This document shows, piece after piece, positions 397 to 63,969 of a stretch of 64,000 nucleotides of DNA. The DNA is from an uncultured Candidatus Saccharibacteria bacterium (GTDB lineage Bacteria > Patescibacteriota > Minisyncoccia > Phycocordibacterales > Phycocordibacteraceae). The notes under the pieces are model-generated. The model was not told where the DNA came from and searched no databases. It saw nothing but the letters and a program-made list of their open reading frames with translations. How positions within the stretch are numbered: position 1 is the first letter of the stretch; every line of letters begins with the position of its first letter. The translations under genes and the position numbers were made by a program. The DNA lies in contig CAYGGK010000001.1 of NCBI GenBank assembly GCA_964349555.1, positions 49,486 through 113,485 on the forward strand, given 5' to 3'.

Positions 397-432
397 GATT
401 TTGCAACTCTAGCACACCGGCCATACAATTGT

Positions 433-1575: not shown

Positions 1576-2129
1576 AGAAGGGAGTACGTTGTATCGCCCG
1601 GGAAGAATCCGCTCTTCTTAATGGGGAGTAGCCGCAGATCAACACGACCGATGATGTCACTCTCTGGTAGCGGACCCCAGGTTCGGCTGTCGGAGCTGTT
1701 GGGGCGGTTATCTCCCATGACAAAATATTCTTTAGGACGAAGGGAGACATTTTTAGTATACGTCGCGTCCTCGTTGACGATGTAGGGCTCGGCGAGGGAG
1801 AGTTTTTCTCCGAGAACAGTGGTGACGGTAACGACTCCGCGATTGATGGAGACGGTTTCTCCGGGAAGTCCAACGATACGCTTGATATAGAAAACAGATG
1901 GCTTATTCGGATACCGGAAGACGATGACATCGCCGCGGGAGGGCGGCGTAAAGCGGTACACGAGCGCGTCAACAATGAGATAGTCAAGATTTTCAAAGGT
2001 CGGGGACATGGAGGCGCCATCAACAATAAACGGCGATACTACAAAGGCGCGTATCGGGATAACCACGACAACAACAAGTAATGCGAGCGTGAAAAGATCC
2101 TTCAGAAGACCCTTCCAAGTATCAGACAT
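1572..2129 (-). CDS. lepB: Signal peptidase I
   Basis: N-terminal TM, SPase I boxes (VVSPFIVDGASMSPTF, IKRIVGLPGETV, GDNRPNSSDSR). Confidence 0.85.
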   Translation of the reverse strand: MSDTWKGLLKDLFTLALLVVVVVIPIRAFVVSPFIVDGASMSPTFENLDYLIVDALVYRFTPPSRGDVIVFRYPNKPSVFYIKRIVGLPGETVSINRGVVTVTTVLGEKLSLAEPYIVNEDATYTKNVSLRPKEYFVMGDNRPNSSDSRTWGPLPESDIIGRVDLRLLPIKKSGFFPGDTTYSLL

Positions 2130-2184
2130 ACGCGCATTGTACGCATCCGCTCCAAGAGTGCAACTTTTCTGTTACCATGTGTGC

Positions 2185-2811
2185 ATGAGTATCGTCATTG
2201 TCGGGCTCGGGAATCCAGGGAAAGAATATGAAAAGACGCGGCACAACGCTGGAAGAAGCGCTGTGGAGCTGGTGGCGAAGCAAGAAAGCTTTGATGAATT
2301 TGTTTTTAACAAAACGGCGAACGCGCGTGTAAGCAAGGGCGCTATCGCAGGTGAAAATACGACACTCGTCTTGCCGGAAACATTTATGAATGCCTCCGGC
2401 AAAGCCGTCAGTGCGTTTATTCCCGCCGGAGGCGGGTCCGCCTCCGGCGGAAAAGGCAAAAAAATGTTAAAGAATCTTCTCGTCATTCACGACGACTTGG
2501 ATTTACCGCTCGGTACGGTAAAAATGGTGTTCGGTCGCGGCTCGGGAGGGCACAAGGGCGTAGAGAGCATCATGCGCGCCGTGAAGACAGAGAACTTCGC
2601 TCGCATTCGCATCGGCATCTCGGGAATGGGGAAGAAGAATCAGGCGAAGAAAGTTTCAGGAGACGAAAAAGTGCTTAAGCACGTGATAGGGAAGTGGAAG
2701 CCCGGCGAAGAAGCCGCGCTGAAAAAGACTCTGAAAAAAGTCGCAGAAACCGTCCGCCTCTTCGCCGCCTCCGGCATCGACCCTGCAACAATGTTCGCCA
2801 ACACCCGCTAG
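2185..2811 (+). CDS. pth: Peptidyl-tRNA hydrolase
   Basis: IVGLGNPGKEY...HNAG, LVIHDDLDLPLG and GGHKGV motifs. The start was trimmed to the ATG at 2185 inside the longer ORF. Carries a Gly/Lys-rich insert. Confidence 0.85.
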   Translation: MSIVIVGLGNPGKEYEKTRHNAGRSAVELVAKQESFDEFVFNKTANARVSKGAIAGENTTLVLPETFMNASGKAVSAFIPAGGGSASGGKGKKMLKNLLVIHDDLDLPLGTVKMVFGRGSGGHKGVESIMRAVKTENFARIRIGISGMGKKNQAKKVSGDEKVLKHVIGKWKPGEEAALKKTLKKVAETVRLFAASGIDPATMFANTR

Positions 2812-5130: not shown

Positions 5131-7617
5131 ATGGCGCGTGAGAAAGCAGATATAAAAGATGGAGAGGGTTCCCCCCTGGGGAACCCTATCGCCGCAAATG
5201 TCATCAATCAGCCGATCGTGTCGGAGATGCGGACGTCGTATGTGGATTACGCGATGTCGGTTATTACTGGCCGCGCTCTGCCGGACGTGCGCGACGGGCT
5301 GAAGCCCGTGCATCGCCGCATCCTCTACGCGATGAAAGAGCTGGGGCTTCTCCCGGGGGCGAAGTTTCGCAAGAGCGCTTTGGTGGTCGGCGACGTGCTC
5401 GGTAAGTACCATCCGCACGGCGACACCGCAGTTTACGACTCAATGACCAAGATGGCGCAAGAATTCTCACACCGGTACCCGCTCGTTCTTGGGCAGGGCA
5501 ACTTTGGCTCCATTGACGGCGACTCGCCGGCGGCGATGCGCTACACCGAAGCAAAGATTTCTCGTATCGCCGAGGCGCTTCTTGCCGATTTGGAAAAAGA
5601 CACCGTCGCGTGGAATCCCAACTACGACGCGACACGCGAAGAACCACGAGTGCTCCCCGCCGCGCTCCCAAACCTGCTTTTAAACGGCACGCTCGGCATC
5701 GCGGTCGGCATGGCGACTAATATTCCACCGCACAATCTCCGCGAAGTCGTTGCCGCAACCATCCATCTTATTGATAATCCGGAGGCAACGACCGATGATC
5801 TTTTACAATTCGTGAAGGGTCCCGACTTCCCGCTTGGCGGCGTCGCCTTCGGTCAGGCTGACATTAAGCACGCCTATGGGTCCGGCAAGGGCTCGCTTGT
5901 TGTGCGAGGCGAAGCGGAGATTGTTGACGATGGGAAAAAGGATACAAAAATTGTCATCACCTCTATTCCGTATCGCGTGAACAAGAGCGAGCTCATCAGC
6001 CGCATCGCTGACTTGGTACAAGAAAAAAAGATTGAAGGCATCCGCGACTTGCGCGACGAGTCAACCTCGGATATCCGCGTCGTGGTGGAGTTGAAGGGCA
6101 CCGCGCATCCGCAGGCCGTTTTGAATAATCTATACAAATACACCGAGCTGGAAAGCACGTTCCACTACAACATGCTCGCGCTCGTCGACGGCGTGCCGGA
6201 GATGCTTTCGCTTTCCGGTATGCTGGAGCACTTCGTGGAGCACCGCCGAGAGGTGGTGAAGCTCCGCACGGAGTACGACCTGCGTCAGGCGACTGCAAGG
6301 GAGCACATTCTTCTCGGTCTCTCCAAGGCGCTCGACCATATTGACGAGGTCATTGCGATTATTAAGAAGTCTGCCGACGTTTCTTCCGCGAGCCTCGCGC
6401 TTCAAAAGAAGTTCGGTTTCTCTGCGCTCCAGACTGCGGCGATTCTTGAAATGAAACTCTCCAAGCTCGCGGGGCTTGAGCGTAAGAAAATCGAGGACGA
6501 GTTATCCGAGGTGCAGGCGCTCATCAAGACGTTGAAAGAGATTCTCTCCTCAGCGAAAAATATTCTCGCCGTTGTCAAGAAAGAGCTTACGGAGCTCAGT
6601 GAAAAATACGGCGACGACCGTCGCACTAGAATCGTGAAAGGCGGCGTGCAGAATATTTCCGCAGAGGACCTCGTGCCGGACGAAGACTCGATGTTGGTGC
6701 TTACCCAAGGAGGATATGTGAAGAGGACGAACCCGAGCGAATACAAGATACAAAAACGCGGCGGTGTCGGCGTCGTGGATATTGCGACGAAAGAAGAAGA
6801 CATCGTGACGCACTTCCTCGTAACGAATGCGCACAGCGACCTGCTGTTCTTCACCAACTTTGGCAAAGTGTACCAGCTCAAGATGTACGAAATACCGGAA
6901 GGGAAGCGCGCGACTAAAGGCAAGAGCATTATGAACTTCCTACCGCTCTCCGCTGAGGAGTCGGTGACGAGCGTGCTTGCGGTGCCGAAAGGGGCGGCGC
7001 TCAACGCCTCATCTGTTATGTTCGTGACGGAAGCGGGCGCGGTGAAGAGGGTAGCGGCGAAGAGTTTCGCCGACGTGCGCCGTTCCGGTATCATCGCGAT
7101 TACTCTGAAGAAAGGCGACACGCTCGTCTCAGCCCATCTTGCAGGAGAGGGCGATACCGTGTCTATCGTCACCGCGAAGGGACAGTCAATCCGTTTTGAG
7201 GTTGATGATGTTCGCGAAATGGGTCGTACCGCCGGAGGTGTGCGCGGTATGAGTGTGAAGAAGGGAGATCGCGTGGTCTCGGCTGAAGTCATTTCTGCCA
7301 CGGCCTCCGATGCGTCTATCCTCGTTATCATGAGCAAGGGTTACGGTAAGCGCACAAAAATTTCAGAATATAAGGTACAAGGTCGCGGAGGCTCGGGTAT
7401 GAAAACAGCCAATATCACGCCGAAGACTGGCGAGATTATCGGCGCGAAGGTTGTTATCGGTAGCTTGGAAGGAGAAGAGCTTGTTGTCATTTCTAAAAAA
7501 GGACAGGTAATCCGTACTTCGGTCTCTGGGATTCCGCTTCTTTCTCGTGCCACTCAAGGCGTTCGCATTATGAAGCTCTATCCTGGCGACTCCATCGCCA
7601 GCATGGTGGCACTGTAG
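5131..7617 (+). CDS. gyrA: DNA gyrase subunit A
   Basis: [29 protein letters not shown], the active-site region, and C-terminal beta-pinwheel repeats. Confidence 0.95.
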
Positions 7618-15617: not shown

Positions 15618-15669
15618 TGGGAAATCAACAATTCTTGCTATAGCAGAAGTTGTTGATAGTTGTTATTTA
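15618..15669. repeat. Repeat R2a: ~52-bp element containing the imperfect palindrome ATCAACAATTCTTGCTATAGCAGAAGTTGTTGAT
   Basis: Seen directly. Copies at 16268-16301 (same orientation) and 30199-30250 (reverse complement, 1 mismatch in the core). Confidence 0.8.
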
Positions 15670-16267: not shown

Positions 16268-16301
16268 ATCAACAATTCTTGCTATAGCAGAAGTTGTTGA
16301 T
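16268..16301. repeat. Repeat R2b (core palindrome copy) upstream of PaaX-like gene 2
   Basis: Identical 34-bp core to R2a. Confidence 0.8.
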
Positions 16302-25743: not shown

Positions 25744-26634
25744 TTAAGACACTGTGTGTCCTAGCTTACGGAGCCAAGCCTTCTGGCGGCGGGCGTACTG
25801 CCAGAGTTTTGCTGAGAGGGTGGGGAAGAGAGATTCTTCGGCGCGCTCCTTTCGTAGAAATTCGCCGATGATTTTGTACTCAAGACCAAGCTCGTTCAGA
25901 CGCTCATCGCCCACCTCTTCGCGTACGCGGCGCACCTCGTCAATAAGCCCCCGCTCAAGCGCGCTTTTGAGACGTGTGTCTATCCGCGCGCGCAGTTCCT
26001 CGCGCGAGGGGTCAATTACAATCCATTCAATCAGGTATCTCAAAGATATGCCTATAGGTACGTCTTTGGGACACCTCAACGGAACAGTGCCGAGGAACTC
26101 GATGATTTCGAGCGCGCGGATGAGGCGTCGGCGGTTCTGCGGGTCAAGCTCGCTTGCGCGCCGCGGGTCTACTTCTCTAATTCGCGCGAATAGTTCCTCA
26201 GTGGGGAGTGCCTCAAGCTCCTCGCGTAGTGCAGGATTAGCATCAACTCCCGTCGGGAGGCCGCGGAGCAAGGCGTCAAAATAAAAGTGCGTCCCACCGA
26301 CAAGGATCGGGAGTTTCCCGCGAGACGATATTTCCTCAATCAGGCGCGTCGCATCGGCCACGAAATCTCCGGCGGAGTACTTCTCGCTCGCGCCACGGAT
26401 ATCAATAAGGTGATGCGGAACCCCCTGCATTTCTTCAAGCGTTATTTTCTCAGTGCCGATATCAAGCCCGCGATATACCTGTCGTGAGTCAACCGAGATC
26501 ACCTCGCTCATGAAGGGTTTCGTAAATCCTTCATTTGATGAAGGATTTACGAAACCCTTCAAAGCAATTTCAACGGCCCGAGAGGATTTACCCGAGGCGG
26601 TGGGGCCGGCTATGCAGAGGATTTGTGTTGCCAT
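25744..26634 (-). CDS. miaA: tRNA dimethylallyltransferase
   Basis: P-loop ILCIAGPTASGKSS and ISVDSRQVYRGLDIGTEK, HHLIDI. Carries a 16-aa in-frame insertion right after the P-loop. Confidence 0.85.
   Translation of the reverse strand: MATQILCIAGPTASGKSSRAVEIALKGFVNPSSNEGFTKPFMSEVISVDSRQVYRGLDIGTEKITLEEMQGVPHHLIDIRGASEKYSAGDFVADATRLIEEISSRGKLPILVGGTHFYFDALLRGLPTGVDANPALREELEALPTEELFARIREVDPRRASELDPQNRRRLIRALEIIEFLGTVPLRCPKDVPIGISLRYLIEWIVIDPSREELRARIDTRLKSALERGLIDEVRRVREEVGDERLNELGLEYKIIGEFLRKERAEESLFPTLSAKLWQYARRQKAWLRKLGHTVS
26511..26561. repeat. Perfect palindrome (23-bp arms TGAAGGGTTTCGTAAATCCTTCA / TGAAGGATTTACGAAACCCTTCA, 5-nt spacer) inserted in-frame within miaA
   Basis: Seen directly; it encodes the extra GFVNPSSNEGFTKPF segment. 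Confidence 0.85.
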
Positions 26635-26676
26635 TAAGCGCGATGGTATCATGATAGTGAGGTAACCAATACACAT

Positions 26677-27336
26677 ATGAAAGAGACCAAAAGTAATTAT
26701 TGCGGGCACTGCGGAGAGTTCCACGACACGGTTCGTGACTACTCCTCAATGGTGAAGGTTGGAGAACCCGTACCAGACTTTGAATTTGAAGTGTTCCATA
26801 AAGACACGATTACAACGATGAGCTTGTTGCAACTGCGCGGGAAATGGGCGATCATCGTTTTCTATCCGGCCGACTTCACCTTCATCTGCCCGACTGAACT
26901 TGAAGAATTGGCGGAGCTGTATCCGAAGTTCCAAGGGCTGAACGCAGAAATCATCTCTGTCTCGACCGACACCGTCTTCACGCACAAGGCGTGGCATGAT
27001 GCGTCGAGCGGTATTAAGGCGATCAAGTATCCGATGGCGGCCGACCCTTCGGGTAAACTCGCTCGCGCGTTCGGCGTTCTCATTGAAGGAGAGGAGACGG
27101 CACTTGCGCCGGACGAAGGTCTTGCTCTCCGCGGGACATTCATCATTGACCCTGCGGGCATTCTGCGCGGAGCGGAGATTAACGACAACTCAATCGGCCG
27201 CAAAGGCTCGGAGACTTTGCGTAAGCTCCAGGCGGCGCAGTACGTGGAAACGCACAAGGGCCAAGTCTGTCCGGCTTCGTGGGAGCCAGGTTCCGACACA
27301 CTCGAACCGGGCCTGGACTTAGTGGGGAAGTTATAA
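26677..27336 (+). CDS. Typical 2-Cys peroxiredoxin (AhpC/TSA family) with N-terminal CxxC-containing extension
   Basis: FYPADFTFICPTELE peroxidatic Cys motif and resolving Cys near the C-terminus (VCP). An alternative start at 26749 is possible. Confidence 0.85.
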   Translation: MKETKSNYCGHCGEFHDTVRDYSSMVKVGEPVPDFEFEVFHKDTITTMSLLQLRGKWAIIVFYPADFTFICPTELEELAELYPKFQGLNAEIISVSTDTVFTHKAWHDASSGIKAIKYPMAADPSGKLARAFGVLIEGEETALAPDEGLALRGTFIIDPAGILRGAEINDNSIGRKGSETLRKLQAAQYVETHKGQVCPASWEPGSDTLEPGLDLVGKL

Positions 27337-30198: not shown

Positions 30199-30250
30199 AA
30201 TAAACACTATCAACAACTTTTGCTATAGCAAGAATTGTTGATTTCCCAGG
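30199..30250. repeat. Repeat R2c: reverse-complement copy of the R2 palindromic element in the topA-rel intergenic region
   Basis: The core ATCAACAACTTTTGCTATAGCAAGAATTGTTGAT is the reverse complement of the R2a core with 1 mismatch; the flanking ~10 bp on each side also match R2a. Confidence 0.8.
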
Positions 30251-30295: not shown

Positions 30296-32770
30296 TTATT
30301 TCAAGTACTCGGCGGCTGAGGTGGGAGTGAGGGACTCCGGAGAAACTGTATCGGGCAGATAGATGCGGCGAAGGCCTTTTTTTAAGAAAACGCCTTGTTT
30401 TGATTTGTAGAGCACAAGTTGTTTGCCGGTGCGCGGGTGTGCGCCGATCTCTTTTACTATCTCAACGCCCTTGGGTGGCCGCTTGGGCTCGGCAAGCAGA
30501 GTGAGGGCTTCGTCCAGCGTAATAGTATATGGGTCGCCGACCTTTGCCTTCAGAGAACGAAACTCTCCGTCGCTTCCCACATACGGCCCGAATCTTCCGG
30601 TTGAGGCGAACACCGGCTTGTCGGTGGAAGGATGCATTCCCAACTCGCGCGGAAGCGAGAGGTATTTAATTGCGTCTGCGAGCGTTATCTGCAAGAGGTC
30701 GGTACCGGCGGGAATGCTCGCACGTTTGGCGGCCGTCTTCGGCCGCCCCTTCCCACGCTTCTTTTCGCCGCTTTTTGCGGCGCCCCGCGGAGCCTTGGCG
30801 GAGTGGGGTTCTTTATCCAGCGCCCCCTCCACCGAAGCTTCGGAGGGCAACGGCATCTCCACGTACGGTCCGAATCGTCCAGTCTTTATATAAATTGGCG
30901 CACCGGTCTCCGGATGGGTGCCGATAGGTTCGTCATTTTTAAGTTCAGCACCATCTTCAGTCCGTATACCGAGGCATTCTGGATATTTTTTACAACTCAT
31001 AAAGACCCCGCCGCGGCCGAGCTTGTTCTCCATAGGGCTTCCGCAGAGCGGACATGGGAATTCTTTTGAAACGTCGCCGAGCGAAGTCGCCTTTGGGAGC
31101 TTATCCTTTGCCCGTACAGCTTTATCAAATGGACCATAAAATGCAGTCAGTGTTTCGGTATATCCGCGTTCGCCGCGAGCGATTTCATCGAGTTCGTCCT
31201 CCATTTCTGCAGTGAAAGTATCACTTACGTAATTTGGAAAGTTTTCCTCGAGCCACCCGGAGACGACCATGCCGGTGGCCGTTGGTTTAAGCGCGCGCGC
31301 AAGTTTCTCCACATATCCGCGATCCTGGATGGTTTTCATAATAGAAGCATAGGTTGACGGACGACCAATACCGCGTTTTTCCAATTCCTTGATAAGTCCG
31401 GCTTCAGTGTAGCGGTTCGGAGGCTCAGTCTGCTTTTCTTCCGCACCGAGTGAGAGGAGCGAGAGGGGGTCGCCAGTGGAGAGCTTCGGCAACTCCACGT
31501 CCTCTCCTCGCGCCGCCGTATCGAGCGCGAGCCATCCGGGGAAGATCACGCGAGAACCGTTTGCGGTAAAAAGAGGGATATCGATGTCGGCTTTTGCCGC
31601 AACGTTCGTACGCATAATCTTCGCCGAAGACATTTGTGAAGCGAGCGCACGCGTCCGGATTAAATTATATAGATGCACTTCATCCGGCGTAGACCCGGCG
31701 TGTGCGCGAGCCGAGTCGGTCGGGCGTATCGCTTCATGCGCCTCCTGGGCATTCTTACTCGTCGTTTTATACACGCGCACATGCAGATACTCCTTACCGA
31801 ATTCTTTTTCAACAACGCCCGCCATTTTCGCGACCGCCTCTGTTGAGAGACTCACGGAATCCGTTCTCATGTAGGTAATATGTCCGGCCTCGTAGAGTTT
31901 CTGCGCGGCGCGCATCGCTCGGGAGGGCGCGAAGCCAAGGCGCGTCGAGGCCGTCTGTTGGAGCGTTGAGGTGGTAAAGGGAGGGCGAGGGTTACGCTCC
32001 TCGGCTTTTTCAGTGACGCTCGCCACGCTCCACTTCGCCACTCTGCCGGCATCCACTATCTTGTCCGCTTCTTCTCGCGTTGCGGGCTGTTCGGTACATG
32101 TCGTTTGCAATTCCGACTTTCTGCCGGAGGCGGATCCGCCTTTGGCGGAAAAGAGCGCTGAGAGTACGAAGTAGGTTACGGGTATAAAAGCTTTTATTTC
32201 CCGTTCGCGTTCTGCAAGTATCCGGAGCGCCGGCGACTGTACCCTCCCGGCTGACAGGCCGTACCGCACCTTTTTCCAGATCAGGCCGGAGAGATCATAG
32301 CCAACGATGCGATCAAGAACGCGTCGCGCTTCTTGCGCGCGACGCAGATTCTCGTCTATATCTCTCGGATGCTCTATCGCATCCTTGATGGCACTCTCCG
32401 TAATTTCATGATAGACAACGCGTTTAATCAGTTTGGAATTTCGAGTTTGATGCTTCTCGCTTCCCAAGCCATCCCTGATGATTTGGGCGATATGCCACGC
32501 AATCGCTTCGCCCTCGCGGTCAGGGTCGGTCGCGAGGTATATCTCGTCTGCCGACGCCGCCGCGCGCTGTATTTTTTCTATCACGTCGCGTTTATCGGCA
32601 GATATGACATAGCGCGGTATAAAACCACCTTCAATGTCTACCGCGTCTTTATTGCTCTTCGGCAGGTCGCGCACGTGTCCGACCGAAGCGAGAACTTCGT
32701 AGTCCTTGCCGAGATATTTTCCTATGGTTCTCGCCTTGGTTGGCGACTCTACAATCAATAGCCTCTTCAT
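30296..32770 (-). CDS. topA: DNA topoisomerase I
   Basis: Toprim (KRLLIVESPTKARTI), the active-site Tyr region, C-terminal zinc-ribbon and Lys-rich repeats. Confidence 0.95.
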   Translation of the reverse strand: MKRLLIVESPTKARTIGKYLGKDYEVLASVGHVRDLPKSNKDAVDIEGGFIPRYVISADKRDVIEKIQRAAASADEIYLATDPDREGEAIAWHIAQIIRDGLGSEKHQTRNSKLIKRVVYHEITESAIKDAIEHPRDIDENLRRAQEARRVLDRIVGYDLSGLIWKKVRYGLSAGRVQSPALRILAEREREIKAFIPVTYFVLSALFSAKGGSASGRKSELQTTCTEQPATREEADKIVDAGRVAKWSVASVTEKAEERNPRPPFTTSTLQQTASTRLGFAPSRAMRAAQKLYEAGHITYMRTDSVSLSTEAVAKMAGVVEKEFGKEYLHVRVYKTTSKNAQEAHEAIRPTDSARAHAGSTPDEVHLYNLIRTRALASQMSSAKIMRTNVAAKADIDIPLFTANGSRVIFPGWLALDTAARGEDVELPKLSTGDPLSLLSLGAEEKQTEPPNRYTEAGLIKELEKRGIGRPSTYASIMKTIQDRGYVEKLARALKPTATGMVVSGWLEENFPNYVSDTFTAEMEDELDEIARGERGYTETLTAFYGPFDKAVRAKDKLPKATSLGDVSKEFPCPLCGSPMENKLGRGGVFMSCKKYPECLGIRTEDGAELKNDEPIGTHPETGAPIYIKTGRFGPYVEMPLPSEASVEGALDKEPHSAKAPRGAAKSGEKKRGKGRPKTAAKRASIPAGTDLLQITLADAIKYLSLPRELGMHPSTDKPVFASTGRFGPYVGSDGEFRSLKAKVGDPYTITLDEALTLLAEPKRPPKGVEIVKEIGAHPRTGKQLVLYKSKQGVFLKKGLRRIYLPDTVSPESLTPTSAAEYLK

Positions 32771-32805
32771 TATGAGTCAGTCATAGCGCGCGCGCCTATG
32801 CGCCG

Positions 32806-52452: not shown

Positions 52453-52647
52453 ATGGACGCGAGAGAGTACGTAGAAAACAAGGTCGCCCATATGCGAAGG
52501 ATGGGAATCCTTGCCGAGGTTAGCCGCGATACGGGGGCAGCCTGTCCGGTCTGGTTAAAAATCCTGCGGGCTGAAGGGAAGAGGCACCAGGGTATGCCGT
52601 CATTACGGCGACAGCTTGATCTTGAAGCGGCCGACACCGACTCGTAA
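52453..52647 (+). CDS. Small hypothetical protein (64 aa)
   Basis: AAAGGA Shine-Dalgarno 7 nt upstream; a strong intrinsic terminator 35 nt downstream. Confidence 0.25.
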   Translation: MDAREYVENKVAHMRRMGILAEVSRDTGAACPVWLKILRAEGKRHQGMPSLRRQLDLEAADTDS

Positions 52648-52681
52648 CATCGGCGTTGCAGGATATCATTGGGGGCCAGCC

Positions 52682-52715
52682 ACGTGCTGGCCCCTTTATT
52701 TTTATACGATGCCAC
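52682..52715 (+). terminator. Intrinsic terminator (GGGGCCAGC-loop-GCTGGCCCC followed by TTTATTTTTAT)
   Basis: Perfect 9-bp GC stem plus a U-tract, seen directly. Confidence 0.6.
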
Positions 52716-52742: not shown

Positions 52743-52765
52743 GTACCGAGGGCCGCCCTCGGTAC
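52743..52765. repeat. Palindromic element P-a: GTACCGAGGGCCGCCCTCGGTAC (perfect palindrome), intergenic
   Basis: Seen directly; copies at 52874-52894 and 59515-59535. Confidence 0.8.
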
Positions 52766-52873
52766 CCACGACGATGGGCGATTGGCAACGAAGCGTGTGC
52801 CACAGAACGGCTTATCTACAACGTGAAATAGGACAAGGTTTAACCTTGTTAGATCACGCGTAATCACCAGTAA

Positions 52874-52894
52874 TACCGAGGGCCACCCTCGGTA
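52874..52894. repeat. Palindromic element P-b: TACCGAGGGCCACCCTCGGTA (1 mismatch), intergenic
   Basis: Seen directly. Confidence 0.75.
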
Positions 52895-52999
52895 ACCTCG
52901 GTAAGCATCTGTTGAACCGTGCGGTTGACCGATTGACTTTATCGTAATAAAAGGTATTTTAAACATGGCTAGTTGTTTGAACAAGGGGAGGCAGAAAAA

Positions 53000-53290
53000 A
53001 TGGGTTATGAAAAGAGCAAGGCGCTTAAACTTGCCGCTCGCCAGGCAAGAGTCGACGGCCATTTTGGGGCTCGATTCGCAAGTTCACAGCCTTCTTCGTT
53101 TGAAGAGGGAGAGACCGTTCGTATCAAAAAGAGCGGCGAAGAAGGAGTTGTGGTAAGCAGGGCCTCTTGGGGCGACTATGTTCTTAATGGCAAAGAAGGA
53201 CTCTACTTTTCGCCCAAGAATCTAGAAAAAGTTATCAAAGGACGAGCCCCAAAGCTCGTCTTCTTCGTTTTTATGCGCGTGGTTGTCTGA
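53000..53290 (+). CDS. Hypothetical protein (96 aa)
   Basis: Strong Shine-Dalgarno AAGGGGAGG 9 nt upstream of the second ATG of the ORF. Confidence 0.3.
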   Translation: MGYEKSKALKLAARQARVDGHFGARFASSQPSSFEEGETVRIKKSGEEGVVVSRASWGDYVLNGKEGLYFSPKNLEKVIKGRAPKLVFFVFMRVVV

Positions 53291-53463
53291 CGAAAGTTAG
53301 TAATATCAGTCTTGTACCTCCTGTGCTTTTCTAGCATTGACTGAGGGGGTTCACCCCACAGCGAGGAGTGCTAAATGTGGTGGACTCGTACAGCACGTTG
53401 ACGATATACCGGGTATCTGCTAGATTTACAATACACTTGCATGAGAATGGTGGCGACAGATAA

Positions 53464-53709
53464 ATGAGCGACGGCGAAGAGACTAAAACGACAACGGTCG
53501 GTACCGTTGAAGAGGTGTTGCCCAACTCATTATTTAGAGTCCGTCTGCAGGCGACAGAGGAGGAGGAAGGAGTGGAGAAACCGCTCGTGCTCGCCTACCT
53601 CGCAGGGAAGATGCGCCTCCACCGTATTCGGGTCTTGGTAGGCGATCAGGTTGATATGGTTCTCGACCCGTACGGCGGCAAGGCGAGAATAGTGCGCAGA
53701 TTAACGTAA
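53464..53709 (+). CDS. infA: Translation initiation factor IF-1 (with acidic insertion)
   Basis: VGTVEEVLPNSLFRVRL...GKMRLHRIRVLVGDQVDMVLDPY...GRIVRR matches IF-1; carries an extra ATEEEEGVEKP loop. Confidence 0.8.
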   Translation: MSDGEETKTTTVGTVEEVLPNSLFRVRLQATEEEEGVEKPLVLAYLAGKMRLHRIRVLVGDQVDMVLDPYGGKARIVRRLT

Positions 53710-53727
53710 GGTAACTATAATACTAAG

Positions 53728-53844
53728 ATGAAAGTTCGTGCATCAATAAAAGTACAACAGCCGGGAGACCAGCTCGTCCGCAGAGGCGGACGCTTGTACC
53801 GTATTAATAAGAAGAATCCGCGACGCAAAGCTCGACAAGGCTAA
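53728..53844 (+). CDS. rpmJ: 50S ribosomal protein L36 (Cys-less form)
   Basis: 38-aa ORF, below the cutoff and translated by hand: [38 protein letters not shown], in the canonical infA-rpmJ-rpsM position. Confidence 0.7.
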
Positions 53845-53880
53845 CACTACCAATCAACAAAAAACTTTACAGTAACAACT

Positions 53881-54261
53881 ATGAGAATCGCAGGAGTCAC
53901 CATCCCGGATAACAAGCAGTTGGCGTACTCGTTGCCGATTATTTTCGGTATTGGGCCGACGCGCGCGCGCGACATCCTCAAACAGGTTAATGTGCCAGCG
54001 ACCAAGAAGGGAAGCGAGCTCACCAGTGAGGAGGAACAAAAAATTCGCTCGCTCGCCGAGGGGTTCACTATTGAGGGCGAACTGCGCCGCGAGATAGGAC
54101 AGAACGTTAAGCGGTTGAAAGACATCCGCTCAATTCGGGGAGACCGCCATGCGCGCGGACTCCCGGTGCGCGGACAGCGCACTAAGACCAACTCACGCAC
54201 GCGCCGTGGCAACGTGAGGAAGACGATGACCTCCGGTCGCCGTACGCTTGAAAAAACATAA
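53881..54261 (+). CDS. rpsM: 30S ribosomal protein S13
   Basis: MRIAGVTIPDNK...GIGPTRARDIL...GLPVRGQRTKTNSRTRRG. Confidence 0.9.
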   Translation: MRIAGVTIPDNKQLAYSLPIIFGIGPTRARDILKQVNVPATKKGSELTSEEEQKIRSLAEGFTIEGELRREIGQNVKRLKDIRSIRGDRHARGLPVRGQRTKTNSRTRRGNVRKTMTSGRRTLEKT

Positions 54262-54264
54262 TCT

Positions 54265-54699
54265 ATGGGAAAGAAACGTATTATCAAGAAAAGTGGAAAA
54301 GGCCTCGACCAGGGGCGTAAGGAGCGCGCCCTCTCTAAGGCGACCAAGCGCCATCTCGAGAAGGGCATTCTGCACATTGAGGCGACCTTCAACAACACAA
54401 AAGCGATTCTCACCGATGAAAAGGGAAATGCTATTGTTTCTTCGAGCGCCGGCGCACTCGGTTTCTCCGGTGCGAGAAAGTCTACACCGTATGCCGCGGC
54501 GAAGGTCGGTGAATTTCTCGGAGAGAAGGGCATGATGATCGGGCTTAAAGAAGCGACCGTCGTTATTCGCGGCGTCGGCGCAGGTCGCGAGTCGGTATTG
54601 CGCGCTTTCTCCGGGAAGGGAGTCCAAATCAAATCCATCAAGGATGTAACGCCGATACCGCACAACGGCCCGCGACCACCGAAGCCGAGGAGGGTGTAG
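54265..54699 (+). CDS. rpsK: 30S ribosomal protein S11
   Basis: GILHIEATFNNT...SSAGALGFSGARKSTPYAA...IRGVGAGRES. Confidence 0.9.
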   Translation: MGKKRIIKKSGKGLDQGRKERALSKATKRHLEKGILHIEATFNNTKAILTDEKGNAIVSSSAGALGFSGARKSTPYAAAKVGEFLGEKGMMIGLKEATVVIRGVGAGRESVLRAFSGKGVQIKSIKDVTPIPHNGPRPPKPRRV

Positions 54700-54713
54700 C
54701 GTAATAAAACACT

Positions 54714-55328
54714 ATGATTACCGGACCACGATATAAAATAGCAAAGCGCCTCGGCGCGTCAGTCTTTGAAAAAGCGCAGACGCAGAAGTTTGCGCTTTCC
54801 GCCGATCGCTCTGCCAAAAACAAAAAGCGCAGCCGCGGGCGCCAGAGCGAATACGGCAAACAGATGTTGGAGAAGCAGAAGGTGCGCATCACCTACGGTC
54901 TGCCCGAAAGGCAGTTCCGTAATTATGTGAATAAAGCGCTCGCCACTGTGCACACTCAGAGGCCGAGCGATCGCCTCCACGAACTTCTTGAGCTCCGGTT
55001 GGACAACGTTGTGTGGCGTCTCGGCTTGGCAATGACTCGCCGTGGCGCGCGCCAGATGGTCGCGCACGGCCACGTAGTGGTTAATGGAAAGAAGTCCCGT
55101 GTGCCGTCGCAGTCCCTCTTCGTCGGAGATCGCATTTCCGTGCGCGAGGGTTCGAAAGAGCACGGCGTCCTTGTCGGCTTCGCCGAGCGATTCCTAGAGC
55201 GCCCGCTACCGTCATGGCTCTTGTGGGACCCGAAGAAGATGGAGGGCTCGGTAAAGGAGAGACCGACCTCCGCCTCCTCCGACGTGGCGGGCGATCTTGC
55301 GTCGGTGCTCTCGTTCTATACGAGGTAG
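54714..55328 (+). CDS. rpsD: 30S ribosomal protein S4
   Basis: GPRYKIAKRLG, S4 RNA-binding domain (RLDNVVWRLGLAMTRRGARQMVAHGHVVVNGK). Confidence 0.9.
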   Translation: MITGPRYKIAKRLGASVFEKAQTQKFALSADRSAKNKKRSRGRQSEYGKQMLEKQKVRITYGLPERQFRNYVNKALATVHTQRPSDRLHELLELRLDNVVWRLGLAMTRRGARQMVAHGHVVVNGKKSRVPSQSLFVGDRISVREGSKEHGVLVGFAERFLERPLPSWLLWDPKKMEGSVKERPTSASSDVAGDLASVLSFYTR

Positions 55329-55370
55329 TTTTTATTCATTGTTTTATTAATTGGTAACTACGATTGCGTT

Positions 55371-56309
55371 ATGGAATACCACATCACCCTACCCAGTAAG
55401 CCCCGTATTGTTTCTGAAGAAGGATTGCAGGGCGTGTACGAAATAGATTCTCTGTATCCGGGCTATGGCCACACTCTTGGCAACAGTCTTCGCCGCATTA
55501 TTCTCTCTTCGCTTCCCGGCGCGACCGTCACGCAGGTGAAGATTGAGGGCGTCCCGCACGAGTTCAGTACGATAGAAGGTTCTCGCGAGACGGTTATGGA
55601 AATTCTCTTGAATTTGAAGCGCGTGCATTTCGTTCTCCACGGCGATGAGCCGCAGACCGTCTCGCTCGTCGCGAAGGGTTCAGGCGAGATAACCGCGAAA
55701 GACTTCAAGTGTCCGAGTCAAGTTGAAATAAAGAATCCCGAACAGCACATCTGTGACCTCTCCGGAAAGGCGAGTCTAGAGCTGGAGGCGACGATTGAGC
55801 GCGGTCTCGGGTATGTCGCGCGTGAGGCGCTCACCAAGGACAAGGTGGACATCGGCACCATCGCGCTTGACGCGACGTTCACGCCGATTCGCCGCGTCAA
55901 TTATGAGGTAGAAAACATGCGTGTCGGAGACCGCACCGACTTCAATCGCCTGCGTATCCTTATTGAAACGAACGGCACCATCGCCCCGCGCGAAGCTTTG
56001 GAGAAGTCGATCGAGACAATGATCCACCAACTGAAGGCGGTTATAGGATTCCAAGAAAGCGCTTCTCCTTCCGCTGAAAGTACCTCTGCGGAGGGAAGTG
56101 CCGTCTCCGGCGGGAAGATCAAGGTTGCGGAGCTCGGCCTTCCAGCTCGTGTGACGTCCGCTCTTGAAGATTCGGGCATCAAGAGCGCGGCTGGTCTCGC
56201 CAGAAAAACTGCGAGCGCGCTCAAGGAGCTTGATGGGATAGGAGAGAAGGCGATTGAAGAAATCTCAGTTGCGCTCGCCGGTCACGGCCTCACCTTAAAA
56301 TCCGATTAA
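55371..56309 (+). CDS. rpoA: DNA-directed RNA polymerase subunit alpha
   Basis: N-terminal dimerisation domain (GYGHTLGNSLRRILLSS) and C-terminal alpha-CTD (LGLPARVTSALEDSGI). Confidence 0.9.
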   Translation: MEYHITLPSKPRIVSEEGLQGVYEIDSLYPGYGHTLGNSLRRIILSSLPGATVTQVKIEGVPHEFSTIEGSRETVMEILLNLKRVHFVLHGDEPQTVSLVAKGSGEITAKDFKCPSQVEIKNPEQHICDLSGKASLELEATIERGLGYVAREALTKDKVDIGTIALDATFTPIRRVNYEVENMRVGDRTDFNRLRILIETNGTIAPREALEKSIETMIHQLKAVIGFQESASPSAESTSAEGSAVSGGKIKVAELGLPARVTSALEDSGIKSAAGLARKTASALKELDGIGEKAIEEISVALAGHGLTLKSD

Positions 56310-56329
56310 AGTTGTGATTTTAAACTGAT

Positions 56330-56683
56330 ATGGCGTACACCACCAAAGGACAGACATTCCACCGAAAGGCCGGCCAACGCCGGGCGCTTATAAAGTCGCT
56401 CGCGCGGTCTCTTGTTCTCGAGGAGCGTATCTCGACGACCGAGGCAAAGGCGAAGGCACTGCGCCCTTTTGTTGAGCGACTCGTAACCTACGCGAAGAAA
56501 AATACGCTCGCGAGTCGCCGGCTCGCCCAAACGCGTCTCGGCGATAAGGAGGCGGTAAAGAAACTCTTTGATTCAATCGGGCCTCGGTACACCAAGAGAG
56601 ACGGCGGGTACACGCGTGTCGTGAAGCGTACGAAGCGCGGGTTTAATGATGCCCGCAAGCTTGCATATATCTCTTTTACCTAG
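56330..56683 (+). CDS. rplQ: 50S ribosomal protein L17
   Basis: FHRKAGQRRALIKSLARSLVLEERISTT...YTRV. Confidence 0.9.
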   Translation: MAYTTKGQTFHRKAGQRRALIKSLARSLVLEERISTTEAKAKALRPFVERLVTYAKKNTLASRRLAQTRLGDKEAVKKLFDSIGPRYTKRDGGYTRVVKRTKRGFNDARKLAYISFT

Positions 56684-56695
56684 TATTCATATCTT

Positions 56696-57067
56696 ATGAC
56701 CCTCAACACGAAGCCGACCCACACCGAGCACCTCATCGACGCGACTGACCGTACGCTCGGGAGAGTGGCGAGCGAGGCGGCGCACGCGCTGCTCGGCAAG
56801 CGCTCGGTTCACTTCGCGAAAAACCAAGCGGTCCCCATCACCGTTACGGTCAACAATGCCAGCAAGCTACACTTGCCTGCGCGCCGTACGAAAGGGAAGG
56901 TGTATACGCGGTACACCGGCTACCCGGGAGGCCTCTACTCCATGACGATGGAGGAAATGATCGCGAAGAAGGGCATCGCCGAGGTCGTAAAGAAGACCGT
57001 TGACGGCATGATTCCGCGCAACAAACTACGCAAGCCGCGCATGAAGAATCTGGTAGTCAACGCATAA
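56696..57067 (+). CDS. rplM: 50S ribosomal protein L13
   Basis: HLIDATDRTLGRVASEAAHALLGK...TGYPGGL...MIPRNKL. Confidence 0.85.
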   Translation: MTLNTKPTHTEHLIDATDRTLGRVASEAAHALLGKRSVHFAKNQAVPITVTVNNASKLHLPARRTKGKVYTRYTGYPGGLYSMTMEEMIAKKGIAEVVKKTVDGMIPRNKLRKPRMKNLVVNA

Positions 57068-57076
57068 CGGTACGAT

Positions 57077-57472
57077 ATGGCAACAAAATTCATCACTGCA
57101 GTCGGGCGCCGCAAAACCGCAATCGCAACGGTACGCATGAGTGTCGCGCCAAAGTCGAGCGTCATGGTTAACGGCAAGAATCTAAAGGATTATTTCAAGA
57201 CAGATCTACGCGCGAAAATAGCCGAAGAAGCGCTCTCAACAGCGGAGAGCGCCGAGAATTACCAAGTGACTGCGCATGTCGAAGGAGGTGGTATCGCGGC
57301 ACAGGCCGACGCGCTTCGTCACGCTATCTCCCGCGCTCTTATCAAGGTAGAACCGAATACGCGCAAGGTATTAAAGGCCGCGCATTTTCTCAAGCGCGAC
57401 TCGCGCGCCAAGGAACGCAAGAAGCCCGGTCTCGTCAAGGCTCGCAAAGCAAAGCAGTGGAGCAAACGCTAG
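57077..57472 (+). CDS. rpsI: 30S ribosomal protein S9
   Basis: GRRKTAIATVR...GGGIAAQADALRHAISRAL...KKPGLVKARKAKQWSKR. Confidence 0.9.
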   Translation: MATKFITAVGRRKTAIATVRMSVAPKSSVMVNGKNLKDYFKTDLRAKIAEEALSTAESAENYQVTAHVEGGGIAAQADALRHAISRALIKVEPNTRKVLKAAHFLKRDSRAKERKKPGLVKARKAKQWSKR

Positions 57473-57492
57473 TTTTATAAAAAGAGCCAATC

Positions 57493-57855
57493 ATGAACAT
57501 CACGATCAGGGCGACGAAGTACAAGCTCTCCCCAGAAACTGAAGCGCTGATTGAGAAGAAGCTCGCGGCGCCGCTCCGTCTTCTTGGGAAGGACGGCGAC
57601 CGTGCGTTGTTGGAGATAGAGATAGAGGAGGCGCCGCCGGAAGGACGCTCGTCAGAACCCTGCCGGCTCGTCGCGAGGCTTGTGATAAACGACAACGTTT
57701 TTCATGCCGAAGCGGTGAAGCCGACGCCCGAGAGCGCGGCCGATAAGGTCCGCAGTGAGCTCGAGGCCGAGATACGACGTTCACGCGGTCGCGCCCGCCG
57801 ACTCTTTAGGTACGGTGGCGCGGCGCTCAAGCGGATGTTGCGTTTCGGTCGTTAG
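57493..57855 (+). CDS. hpf: Ribosome hibernation promoting factor / ribosomal subunit interface protein (HPF/RaiA-like)
   Basis: MNITIRATKYKLSPETEALIEKKL...FHAEAV pattern of the S30AE family. Confidence 0.65.
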   Translation: MNITIRATKYKLSPETEALIEKKLAAPLRLLGKDGDRALLEIEIEEAPPEGRSSEPCRLVARLVINDNVFHAEAVKPTPESAADKVRSELEAEIRRSRGRARRLFRYGGAALKRMLRFGR

Positions 57856-58391
57856 GTCCTCAGATAGGAAAGCATCGTACCGGCGCCAGAAACCTCAAAT
57901 GGGTCGTCTGGGCAGTTGTCCACATATCCGGGTTCGATAAAAAGCTTTTTGATAACTCCGTCTTCCACAAACATTGAGTAGCGCCATGAGCGCTCGCCGA
58001 AGCCAAGGTTCTCTTTTTTTACAAGCATTCCCATCCCGCGTGTGAACGCGGCATTGCCGTCGGGAAGCATCTTCACGTTCTTCACGCCCTGCTTGTCCGC
58101 CCACTGCTTCATAACAAAGGCGTCATTGACCGAGAGGCAGTAGACTTCGTCAACACCTAATGCCTTAAACTCGTCATACGCCACCTCAAAGCCCGGGAGG
58201 TGCGTCGAGGAGCAGGTGGGCGTAAAGGCGCCCGGCAGGCTGAAGACAACCACCTTTTTGCCCTTGAAGACGTCGTCTGTGGTAATGTCCTGCCATCGGT
58301 ATGGGTTCTCTCCACCGACCGATTCATCCCGCACTCGCGTCTTGAACACGACTTCCGGTACCTTCTCACCTTCTTTTGTATGTGTAGTCAT
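57852..58391 (-). CDS. Peroxiredoxin, Prx5-like (AhpC/TSA family)
   Basis: LPGAFTPTCSSTHLPGF peroxidatic Cys context. Confidence 0.8.
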   Translation of the reverse strand: MTTHTKEGEKVPEVVFKTRVRDESVGGENPYRWQDITTDDVFKGKKVVVFSLPGAFTPTCSSTHLPGFEVAYDEFKALGVDEVYCLSVNDAFVMKQWADKQGVKNVKMLPDGNAAFTRGMGMLVKKENLGFGERSWRYSMFVEDGVIKKLFIEPGYVDNCPDDPFEVSGAGTMLSYLRT

Positions 58392-58406
58392 AATGGCAGA
58401 AGCATA

Positions 58407-59756
58407 TCAAGCCAGCTTTTTATAATCAACCTCGCGTTTGCCTTCAGGGATGACGCGCTCAATAACGAATTTTCCATTCTTGAAAGACGCCTCAGTAATT
58501 TTTATGCGTTTCCCATTTTCAAAAAAATACGTGCCGATAGAGTCAGCATAGGCGCGATACTTGTTCCAATTCTCTTCGGCGGGAGCGTCAAGCGAGAGAA
58601 GACCGTCTTCTTTTTTGATTTTATACGCGCGCGTTGCCTGCGAAGTGTCCTGCGGAGTCGGCGCGAGGTTTCCTTCCAAATATTCCGGGAGCGTTTCAAC
58701 AAGAAGCTTCGCGCCCATCTCGACAAGACGAGGCCGAAGTTCTCGCACAGTTTCATCTGGCCTGATAGGTGTCGCCTCCTGCGCGAGCACGTCGCCTGCA
58801 TCGAGTTCTTTTGCCATTTTCTGTATCGTCACTCCCGTTTCACTTTCTCCCGCGAGAAGAGCAGTTTCGAGAGGTGTTGCTCCTCGATATTTCGGCAGAA
58901 GCGAATAATGCACGTTTAGGACGCCGCTCGGGAATGCGTCTATAAGCGTCTCGGGAAATATTTTCCCATAAGCGACGACGAGGGCGTAGTCGCATCCGAG
59001 TGCGCCAATCGTCCTAATGGTCTCTGAGTCCAGCTTTTCTGGAGTCATGACCGGAATGTCGTGCTCGAGGGCGAGAGTCTTCGTTTCTGAGGGAGTGAGA
59101 GCGAGACCTCGGCCTCTCGGAGCGTCTGGAGAGGTGACGACGACCGAGGGCACGAATCCGCGCTCTATGAGAAGAACGAGCGTGTCGCTCGCGACCTTCG
59201 GCGTGCCGAAGTAGGCGAACGAGTGCGCCAGCCCATGCGGGATACGAATAAGATGTGTCGCGTGGTCGGTAAAGAGAATGCCGTTCAAATGATCCACCTC
59301 ATGTTCAAATATCTGCGCCATGAGCCCGCCGCCGCCGCGTTGAAAGTGAGAGCCGTCAATGCGCCTCGCCTTGATAGTGGCACGCTCGTGTCTCTTTGTT
59401 GTGCCGTAGACGCCGTGCACCGAGAGGCACCCTTCGTCCGTAGTCGCTCTTTTACGCGAGGTTTTTACAATCTCAGGGTTCACATACACCTCCACTTCAG
59501 GAGGGAGCACTTCATACCGAGGGCCGCCCTCGGTAGGTTTAGGCGGGGGAAGAGTTCTGTCTTTGCGCACGATGAACACGCGATATGAGACGCCTATTTG
59601 TGGCGCGGCGATAGCGACCCCTTCCGGGGAGCGGTCAAGCGCTTCGCTCATGTCGTTAACCAGGCGCACGAGCTCCGGCGAGCCGAAGAGATTCTCCGGC
59701 ACCGGTTTCGCGACTTCCCGCAGTATGGGCGCACCGTCCTGCACAATTTCTTTCAT
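58407..59756 (-). CDS. def-fmt: Fused peptide deformylase (N-terminus) plus methionyl-tRNA formyltransferase (C-terminus)
   Basis: The N-terminal half has Def motifs GVAIAAPQIG, EGCLS, EHEVDHLNG. The C-terminal half has the Fmt core: HYSLLPKYRGATP and the Fmt C-terminal domain. Single uninterrupted 449-aa ORF. Confidence 0.8.
   Translation of the reverse strand: MKEIVQDGAPILREVAKPVPENLFGSPELVRLVNDMSEALDRSPEGVAIAAPQIGVSYRVFIVRKDRTLPPPKPTEGGPRYEVLPPEVEVYVNPEIVKTSRKRATTDEGCLSVHGVYGTTKRHERATIKARRIDGSHFQRGGGGLMAQIFEHEVDHLNGILFTDHATHLIRIPHGLAHSFAYFGTPKVASDTLVLLIERGFVPSVVVTSPDAPRGRGLALTPSETKTLALEHDIPVMTPEKLDSETIRTIGALGCDYALVVAYGKIFPETLIDAFPSGVLNVHYSLLPKYRGATPLETALLAGESETGVTIQKMAKELDAGDVLAQEATPIRPDETVRELRPRLVEMGAKLLVETLPEYLEGNLAPTPQDTSQATRAYKIKKEDGLLSLDAPAEENWNKYRAYADSIGTYFFENGKRIKITEASFKNGKFVIERVIPEGKREVDYKKLA
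59515..59535. repeat. Palindromic element P-c: TACCGAGGGCCGCCCTCGGTA inserted in-frame within the def portion of def-fmt
   Basis: Seen directly; encodes part of the extra PKPTEGGPRYEV segment. Confidence 0.8.
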
Positions 59757-63289: not shown

Positions 63290-63969
63290 GAAATCACGCG
63301 TTTGTAGTAGAGGCGGAAGCAGAGGAGGGGATACGAGCGGCCGAAGCGTGGGCCGAAAAAGAGTTGAAAATTAAGATACAGGGGAACCCGGACGTCGTCG
63401 TTTTGCGCTACGGGCTCTTTTCGGTTGAGGACGCGCGGCGAGTAACGGAGCTCGCCGCGAGCGCACCTTTCGCAGGCGAACACAAAGTAGTGATTATTGC
63501 CGCAAGTCGCGCGTATCACGAAGCGCAGAATGCGCTTCTAAAACTCTTTGAGGAACCACCACAAGGAACCTATATGTTCCTTGTGCTTCCGACTCTGGGG
63601 TCTCTGCTTCCCACGTTAAGGTCGCGCATGCAAGTCTTGAGAAGTGCAGTCCCTCGACTGGACTCGGGACGACAAGAAATTCCAGAAGTTGCAAAGCAAT
63701 TTCTTGCCGCGAGTAAGGAGAAGCGGAGCGCGATTATTAAAAAATTGACCAGCGGGAAGGACGAAGAAGAGAAGAGAGAGAATCGCGAGGAGGCGATAGC
63801 TATCGTAAACGGCATCGAGCAAGTGGCTTACCGAAGTCTGACTTCGGCAGGAAATACGGCACTCTTGTCGGATATCGCAACTCTGCGCGGGTACCTCTAC
63901 GACCGTAGCGCACCGGTGCGTATGATTATGGAGCACCTCTCACTAGTGATTCCTCGGAATTTGCTATAA
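63286..63969 (+). CDS. holB: DNA polymerase III delta-prime-like clamp-loader subunit
   Basis: ALLKLFEEPP and SRC-like TLRSRMQVL motifs. 4-nt overlap with mreB. Confidence 0.6.
   Translation: MRNHAFVVEAEAEEGIRAAEAWAEKELKIKIQGNPDVVVLRYGLFSVEDARRVTELAASAPFAGEHKVVIIAASRAYHEAQNALLKLFEEPPQGTYMFLVLPTLGSLLPTLRSRMQVLRSAVPRLDSGRQEIPEVAKQFLAASKEKRSAIIKKLTSGKDEEEKRENREEAIAIVNGIEQVAYRSLTSAGNTALLSDIATLRGYLYDRSAPVRMIMEHLSLVIPRNLL

Follow-up and report, generated by a model that had tools for sequence, protein, structure and literature searches.

Repetitive extragenic palindromes (REPs) and the REP-associated tyrosine transposases (RAYTs) that go with them have reportedly been treated as one system by Nunvar (2010), Bertels and Rainey (2011) and Ton-Hoang (2012), the Rickettsia palindromic elements (RPEs) are said to go back to Ogata (2000), and to our knowledge REP/RAYT systems have been studied almost only in Proteobacteria. 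What defines the published super-families of REPs is a conserved tetranucleotide, GTAG or CGTC, that tags one hairpin end (Di Nocera 2013, PMC3733652), and their members are typically located between co-directional genes (PMC3733652). In the REP/REPIN-RAYT arrangement as published, inverted repeat doublets stand on both sides of the gene (PMC5581495; PMC3733652), intragenic REPs are documented in other phyla (PMC3733652), and both in-frame intragenic REPs (Opitutus terrae, Thauera and others) and RPEs have already been described (PMC3733652). We found no literature linking REP or RAYT with the Candidate Phyla Radiation (CPR), Patescibacteria or Parcubacteria. We describe here a 21-bp palindrome with three copies in a 64,000-nucleotide stretch of DNA (hereafter the window) from an uncultured Candidatus Saccharibacteria bacterium, two of them extragenic and one in frame inside the def-fmt gene. 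The three palindromes are probably copies of a REP-type hairpin element that is found across the Patescibacteria and whose cognate enzyme is a RAYT-like tyrosine transposase of the HUH/Y1 type. The best name for it is a RAYT-like/REP-like system of Patescibacteria, because layout and presumed mechanism match REP/RAYT but the tag is lacking and the NCBIfam score lies below the curated cutoff. This identity, a REP-like repeat tied to RAYT-like HUH tyrosine transposases, goes beyond the initial annotation, which was made from the letters of the window and had described a family of short palindromic elements.

The motif TACCGAGGG-NNN-CCCTCGGTA is present at the three sites named in the initial annotation (Table 1). 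Copies 1 and 3 are exact instances of the 21-mer TACCGAGGGCCGCCCTCGGTA, while copy 2 carries a single base change that falls in the 3-nucleotide (nt) loop (CCA versus CCG), the 9-bp stems being perfect in all three; the earlier description of copy 1 as a 23-bp palindrome also holds, as a flanking G/C pair extends it to a 10-bp stem (52743-52765). Shuffles preserving dinucleotides gave no motif match, against three copies in the window. Three assemblies of this organism, made independently from three samples (L001-L003), contain all three copies without a difference, so that the copies are no assembly artefact. Each copy is predicted to fold as single-stranded DNA into a stable hairpin of -9 to -11 kcal/mol (-11 kcal/mol and z -4.5 for copy 1). 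No similarity beyond the 21 nt was found in the flanks of the three copies, and an Rfam scan at gathering thresholds combined with a tRNA scan of the window returned only seven tRNAs and no match at the palindromes. The region of copies 1 and 2 had been described as a 600-bp noncoding stretch; both copies are indeed extragenic, but the stretch holds an open reading frame (ORF) of 64 aa with its own terminator, and the spacer without any ORF, from that terminator to a promoter-like site, measures about 350 bp. With a terminator on one side and a promoter-like site on the other, the two extragenic copies occupy the usual REP position between co-directional genes.

Table 1. Features of the window that bear on the palindrome, in order of position.
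Feature	Position	Strand	Remarks
64-aa ORF upstream of spacer	52453-52647		own terminator at 52671-52705
Intrinsic-terminator-like hairpin and T-run	52671-52705	+	ends the 64-aa ORF; left spacer edge; terminator scan
REP-like palindrome copy 1	52744-52764	no strand	TACCGAGGG-CCG-CCCTCGGTA, extragenic
Unrelated 7-3-7 palindrome	52832-52850	no strand	ACAAGGT-TTA-ACCTTGT, between copies 1 and 2
REP-like palindrome copy 2	52874-52894	no strand	TACCGAGGG-CCA-CCCTCGGTA, extragenic, same orientation as copy 1
Additional right half-site CCTCGGTA	52896-52903	+	directly 3' of copy 2
Promoter-like site	52933-52960	+	upstream of a 96-aa ORF (53000-53290); right spacer edge; consensus match only
def-fmt fusion gene	58407-59756	-	449 aa; Pfam PF01327 + PF00551 + PF02911
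Hypervariable Def loop	59499-59552	-	residues 69-86, LPPPKPTEGGPRYEVLPP, between conserved RKDRT and EVEVYVNPE
REP-like palindrome copy 3	59515-59535	-	in frame in def, encodes TEGGPRY

The evidence that connects the palindrome with a transposase comes from related loci. On five contigs (L007+L023, L010, L017, L019 and L020) it adjoins a gene of about 220 aa, either 50-65 nt ahead of the start, across the stop codon or at both places, and where it overlaps the stop codon the ORF ends as ...TEGSPR* inside the repeat. At L010 copies at 6000 and 6700, with loops CTC/GAG, stand on the two sides of the gene, and on contig Ga0163151_10000815 (L023 + L007) the bracketing loops are TAG/CTA; the flanking copies are therefore mutually inverted, loops included. 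Four of the proteins beside the palindrome, all from these related loci and not from the window, match Pfam Y1_Tnp (PF01797) with 31.8-38.8 bits at a cutoff of 23, and a protein search returns about 8,000 homologues at E <= 1e-10, the named ones being called 'transposase' in metagenome-assembled genomes (MAGs) of Wildermuth-, Pace-, Yanofsky- and Parcubacteria. The HUH motif NHFH and the tyrosine of the Y-I-H-L-N-P-V-K block are kept across 86 homologues, in which N78, H79, H81, Y139, N143, P144 and K146 are invariant and F80, I140, H141 and L142 are at least 90% conserved. The AlphaFold model of the protein (predicted local distance difference test, pLDDT, 89.8) has as its best fold match in the PDB 4ER8_A, the E. 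coli RAYT with its REP hairpin (E 9.7e-6; TM 0.62 normalised by target length), with structures of IS200/IS605 TnpA ranking next. The fold search alone brought up 4ER8; a profile made from the RAYT-like alignment gave no match among the PDB sequences. Homologues on long Parcubacteria/Paceibacterota contigs (L034 and L035) have inverted doublets of different but similarly built palindromes on both sides, TACACAGG-GTAGT-CCTGTGTA and TTACAAGG-GGAGT-CCTTGTAA, with 8-bp arms and a 5-nt centre. In genomes of 35-57% GC that have the same stems, the RAYT-like proteins are only 37-62% identical.

The distribution of the palindrome itself is that of a dispersed repeat family, the reality of which had been supposed in the initial annotation and is borne out by 23 further loci with the 9-3-9 palindrome in JGI metagenomes. 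These were searched with fixed stems and a free loop, so that stem identity across them holds by construction. Their G+C content ranges from 35 to 57%, and a GC-rich 18-nt match is therefore no composition effect. The loops take at least 14 different values across the loci; on contigs with several copies they agree within the contig, allowing for orientation, and differ between contigs, which is the pattern expected of repeat populations that would propagate or be homogenised within a genome. Solo copies are found as well as clusters, including tandem arrays, and satellite half-sites are frequent beside copies. Most copies are extragenic, and at 17 of the 23 loci, as at all three window copies, there is no RAYT-like ORF nearby. 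A scan of GTDB genomes for the exact 21-mer gave one match, in a Patescibacteria MAG from Hainich groundwater, which alone proves nothing, as about 0.3 matches are expected by chance in 596 Gb; a scan of viral contigs for the motif gave no match. At L006, an rve-type (IS30-like) integrase ORF (6179-7072, minus strand) begins at a TACCGAGGG palindrome that follows a terminator-like hairpin; insertion sequences (IS) are known to insert at REPs in Pseudomonas, and this ORF may likewise mark an IS inserted at a REP.

We infer that the transposase would bind the hairpin on single-stranded DNA and would cut and rejoin it, as the E. coli RAYT and the IS200/IS605 TnpA do, and that its activity either seeded copies around the genome or keeps existing copies homogenised; the palindrome family would in this way be mobilised. 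Several observations weigh against the REP-type reading as a whole. First of all, the copy number is very low, with three copies in about 79 kb of the genome (the window plus flanks of 5.7 kb and 9.6 kb, in which no further copy was found at up to four mismatches), far below classical REP-rich genomes. Second, unlike in REP/RAYT systems there is no GTAG or CGTC tag outside the stem: GTA is part of the stem, and the next base is G at either end in 13 of 29 copies, compared with 44% by chance, a chance-level frequency on which GTAG as a family criterion was rejected. Third, the best NCBIfam match of the transposase, NF047646 REP_Tyr_transpos, scores 41-44 bits against a cutoff of 80 (IS200 scores 17 bits). 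Fourth, tblastn and hidden Markov models on six-frame translations detected no RAYT-like ORF in about 79 kb of the window genome (window, L001 and L036), and neither an ORF nor a remnant lies between or around the extragenic copies, including about 15 kb of extra flank; the window copies may be orphans, or may be served in trans by a gene elsewhere. Finally, an exact 21-nt 'empty site' occurs in no def orthologue. Deleting the seven residues encoded by copy 3 would give a loop that resembles those of several relatives, which are short and rich in proline.

Copy 3 lies in the deformylase half of def-fmt, in which the catalytic motifs GVAIAAPQ, EGCLS and HEVDH are intact in translation. Its sense strand, ACC GAG GGC GGC CCT CGG TAt, supplies T75 E76 G77 G78 P79 R80 Y81, or 7 of the 18 residues of the Def loop. 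The initial annotation had this palindrome contribute part of an extra loop, and it does so, but an enlarged loop is present in all Kaiserbacteria orthologues. The closest Def-Fmt homologues are 70-79% identical and are named Candidatus Kaiserbacteria or Paceibacterota (Patescibacteria); judged by these names, the window organism belongs to the same group. Among 120 such orthologues the segment between RKDRT and EVEVYVNPE is unalignable and runs from about 7 to 34 residues, many loops having only 7-9. The AlphaFold model of Def shows the loop as a coil that joins two strands; pLDDT drops below 50 in just two segments, and residues 74-80 are one of them. Being both hypervariable and modelled as a low-pLDDT coil, the loop is a permissive site. 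Since 21 nt make seven codons and the stems contain no stop codon in any frame, a copy landing in an unconstrained surface loop would just add seven residues. The palindrome is also found in frame in a ComF-like ORF (L024; YRGRPSV, with a further half-site) and in a RecO ORF, there as a tandem pair (L026; LPRAALG NRGRPSG), and these copies together with that in def cover all three reading frames. Of the earlier suggestion that such elements tolerate or favour in-frame insertion into essential genes, the first half is shown by the def, ComF-like and RecO copies, and a preference is not. All the checks that the initial annotation had proposed came out in its favour. The in-frame REP copy in the essential deformylase is a new example of a known phenomenon.

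The history of copy 3 departs from that of the gene around it. Only one other orthologue, P0006 (DNA in L022), has the palindrome. The window and L022 def-fmt genes have 73% DNA identity, yet all 18 stem bases are identical; 43 of 89 same-amino-acid codons are identical, but so are six of six stem codons, for which the chance is about 0.01, and two of the three loop bases differ (CGG versus CAT). P0006 is 91% identical to P0048 (L031), whose loop IDAKRDESGKLSTPHQ is unrelated, and the loop cassette of L022 is 72-77% like that of the window and 33% like that of its close relative. The history of the cassette is discordant with the rest of the gene, and the two carriers of the palindrome are not sisters; vertical inheritance from their common ancestor was considered and is doubtful, the loops of P0006 and P0048 being completely different. 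The window copy in def, on the other hand, has the loop bases of extragenic copy 1, 6.7 kb away, with 21 of 21 positions identical. To judge by these comparisons, the cassette has either passed from one lineage to another, or independent events have hit or homogenised the site; a simple vertical relic does not fit. The loop is not conserved in relatives, and the only relative with the same loop type also keeps the palindromic DNA, which agrees with the in-frame insertion first suggested. At L022 a GIY-YIG nuclease-like ORF (343-627, minus strand) lies immediately upstream of def, a place where the window has no such ORF.

In further lineages the Def loop holds perfect palindromes of other sequence, in line with the in-frame insertion that the initial annotation proposed; across lineages at least three different ones are found in this loop. 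L032 and L038 have the same perfect palindrome, ACGCGCCGC-GAA-GCGGCGCGT, which encodes APRSGAS; elsewhere in the gene about 52% of their same-amino-acid codons are identical. L039 has ACGCGACGC-CAA-GCGTCGCGT, a compensatory double stem change that replaces P by T and G by V, and a neighbouring 10-3-10 hairpin shows covariation as well, with sense-strand G-U pairs. Two AAGGT-NNN-ACCTT units are present in the most frequent loop type (QGSTL...QGQTL). The AAGGT/ACCTT core of these units recurs in the palindrome between copies 1 and 2, which also resembles the REP flanking the RAYT-like gene of L035, and the three might be connected. It is conceivable, though we would not expect it, that the variable loop of Def in Kaiserbacteria is a recurrent landing pad for hairpins whose stems stay maintained at the nucleic-acid level despite the amino-acid cost, a proposal made because of the perfect stems across 27% DNA divergence, the compensatory double substitution and the presence of at least three unrelated palindromes in one loop. 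If it is true, either the def-fmt coding region would contain a functional stem-loop, placed between the two formyl-methionine-cycle enzymes as a site of translational pausing or regulation, or a RAYT-like enzyme would target or homogenise this site actively and specifically.

These same data bear on the strongest alternative to a mobile repeat, namely that the hairpins are kept for host use, with a stem-loop in the def-fmt mRNA or in an intergenic transcript regulating translation, pausing or mRNA stability. Any strong hairpin would then suffice, which would explain different palindromes in the same loop across lineages, and such a role is compatible with a REP origin as a case of exaptation. 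We consider it unlikely. It draws on the stems and stem codons that are identical between the window and L022, on the identical palindrome of L032 and L038, on the double change in L039 that costs two amino acids and the covarying hairpin beside it, and on the loop RNA folds, which are strongly structured in 4 of 10 orthologues (z -3 to -5). However, three of the ten (L031, L033 and L029) have unstructured loops with z > 0, and with the many loops of 7-9 residues this means that a hairpin is not required; the idea of a universal requirement was rejected on these three orthologues. The window loop segment as a whole, at z -0.5, is not unusually stable. Moreover, each hairpin type is represented by only two or three DNA sequences, and palindromes are known to self-correct by intrastrand templating and can gain compensatory changes mechanically, in the absence of selection, so that the apparent nucleic-acid-level conservation in def could reflect such self-correction rather than selection.

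The same self-correction lends some credit to a second alternative, in which the palindrome formed within def itself: templated (quasi-palindrome) mutation or strand-switching would have completed an existing half (...T ACG GAG GGC...), with no insertion at all. Six other loop types have the K-A/V-T-E/K-G pattern. Sequence near the left arm, with no right arm, is seen in the def loops of L028, L029, L032 and L033; L028 and L032 read T ACG GAG GGC, one mismatch from the left arm, while L029 and L033 are more diverged. These stretches may be seeds of a palindrome, but are equally readable as decayed copies. What makes an origin in place very improbable is that the stems are identical at 18 of 18 positions to the palindrome flanking RAYT-like genes in unrelated contigs, and that the whole unit, loop included, is identical to the extragenic copy nearby.

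It is more improbable still that the extragenic copies are plain intrinsic transcription terminators. Elsewhere the same hairpin does directly follow a stop codon and is followed by a T-run (L004/L016, the contig of the Hainich groundwater MAG, L007, L012 and L023), but the window copies have no T-run, and the only hairpin reported there by the terminator scan is the separate canonical one that precedes them. Copies 1 and 2 are thus not canonical terminators, and the reading, which would also leave the intragenic copies and the bracketing of RAYT-like genes unexplained, was rejected. Least probable of all is an operator site, at which a dimeric regulator would bind DNA through 9-bp half-sites separated by a free 3-bp spacer. 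In its favour, symmetric conserved arms around an unconstrained centre are typical of dimer sites, isolated half-sites adjoin full sites and two window sites lie upstream of a promoter-like element. It was rejected because the neighbouring genes share no function (tatD/rpsF, a Ham1-family gene, an exonuclease, comF, recO, def and rpsJ), copies occur behind stop codons as well as within ORFs in three frames and as tandem arrays, the sole recurrent neighbour is the RAYT-like gene, bracketed on both sides, and related RAYT-like genes are bracketed by different palindromes.

Further palindromes were seen in and around the window. A second family, TTCCCGCCGGAGGCGG-NN-CCGCCTCCGGCGGAAA with 16-bp arms, occurs at 2420-2453 and 32118-32151 inside two ORFs (1984-2808, plus strand, and 30299-32776, minus strand) and encodes ...GGSASG(G/R)K... 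in both; this is the miaA case of the initial annotation. A perfect 24-3-24 palindrome at 26511-26561 lies in a 333-aa ORF (25747-26745, minus strand) and encodes KGFVNPSSNEGFTKPF, and an imperfect palindrome of about 34 bp, ATCAACAATTCTTGCTATAGCAGAAGTTGTTGAT, is found at 15624-15657, 16268-16301 and 30209-30242, two of its copies adjoining a tRNA cluster (16.3-17.8 kb). Just beyond the window end, a Peptidase_M50 gene has an in-ORF hairpin at apparently the same position in two species (L001 4532-4558 and L032 4342-4366), TCGCGACGCCCG-CAG-CGGGCGTCGCGA versus CGCAACGCCCG-CTG-CGGGCGTTGCG, an A/G change in one arm being paired by T/C in the other. At the 3' end of that gene, L001 (4039-4063) has TACATAGGA-CTG-TCCTATGTA and L030 (3938-3958) has the same stems with a flipped loop, CAG, at the same syntenic site; this palindrome has the TAC...GTA build of the RAYT-flanking palindromes. 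The gene for the delta' subunit of DNA polymerase III contains perfect 8-3-8, 14-3-14 and 18-3-18 palindromes of differing sequence (window 63520-63538; L030 5445-5475; L032 5798-5836) and may be a second intragenic hairpin hotspot. Across the whole window, perfect hairpins with a stem of at least 8 bp and a loop of 1-6 nt are 4-9 times commoner than in shuffles, and those with a loop of 3 nt number 9 observed against 1.05 expected.

Taken with the REP-type reading of the palindrome, these genomes indicate a large REP/RAYT-related family in the ultra-small genomes of Patescibacteria, with a hairpin whose conservation is unusual given how much these genomes differ. A repeat origin would also account for the puzzling short stretches of extra peptide in essential Patescibacteria genes (def, recO and comF), and knowing this helps to annotate such genes and to read alignments of their proteins. 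In the def loop nature provides a small test case for the entry of hairpin repeats into coding sequence and for the question whether they later stay for a reason at the nucleic-acid level, and the recurrent, apparently maintained hairpins in this loop are the part most worth following up.

We close with a comparison of the system and those already described. First of all, like the REP/REPIN-RAYT systems of E. coli, Pseudomonas and Stenotrophomonas, the family consists of a short GC-rich hairpin whose stems are conserved, inverted copies or doublets stand on either side of the transposase gene, most copies are extragenic, in spacers of co-directional genes, each genome has a repeat population of its own, and the enzyme is of the HUH/Y1 type, with E. 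coli RAYT and its REP (4ER8) as the best structural match. It differs in that the host phylum is Patescibacteria, that the protein is longer, at about 220 aa, carries a helical extension at its C-terminus and does not reach the RAYT cutoff of NCBIfam, and that identical stems are common to genomes with a wide range of GC content and rather divergent RAYT-like proteins. Second, as with intragenic REPs and RPEs, palindromic repeats lie in frame in functional, often essential genes and add a peptide at a tolerant position; RPEs, however, are 100-150 bp long with no known transposase, whereas the unit here is 21 bp with no shared flanks, so that the two are alike in consequence only, and a single def loop that carries at least three different palindromes across lineages sets the present case apart from both. 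Third, IS200/IS605 elements (TnpA Y1; 2A6O, 2XM3) share the fold and the HUH + Tyr chemistry, and their end hairpins are the recognition sites of the enzyme, but there the whole element including the gene is multi-copy and its end hairpins are imperfect and in one orientation, while here we see dispersed solo hairpins and inverted flanking copies. Finally, the DNA uptake sequences DUS of Neisseria and USS of Haemophilus are likewise short motifs that occur as inverted pairs after genes and in frame in coding regions; those are found about once per kb, whereas the motif described here occurs about once per 25 kb, is always a complete palindrome and brackets a transposase gene.

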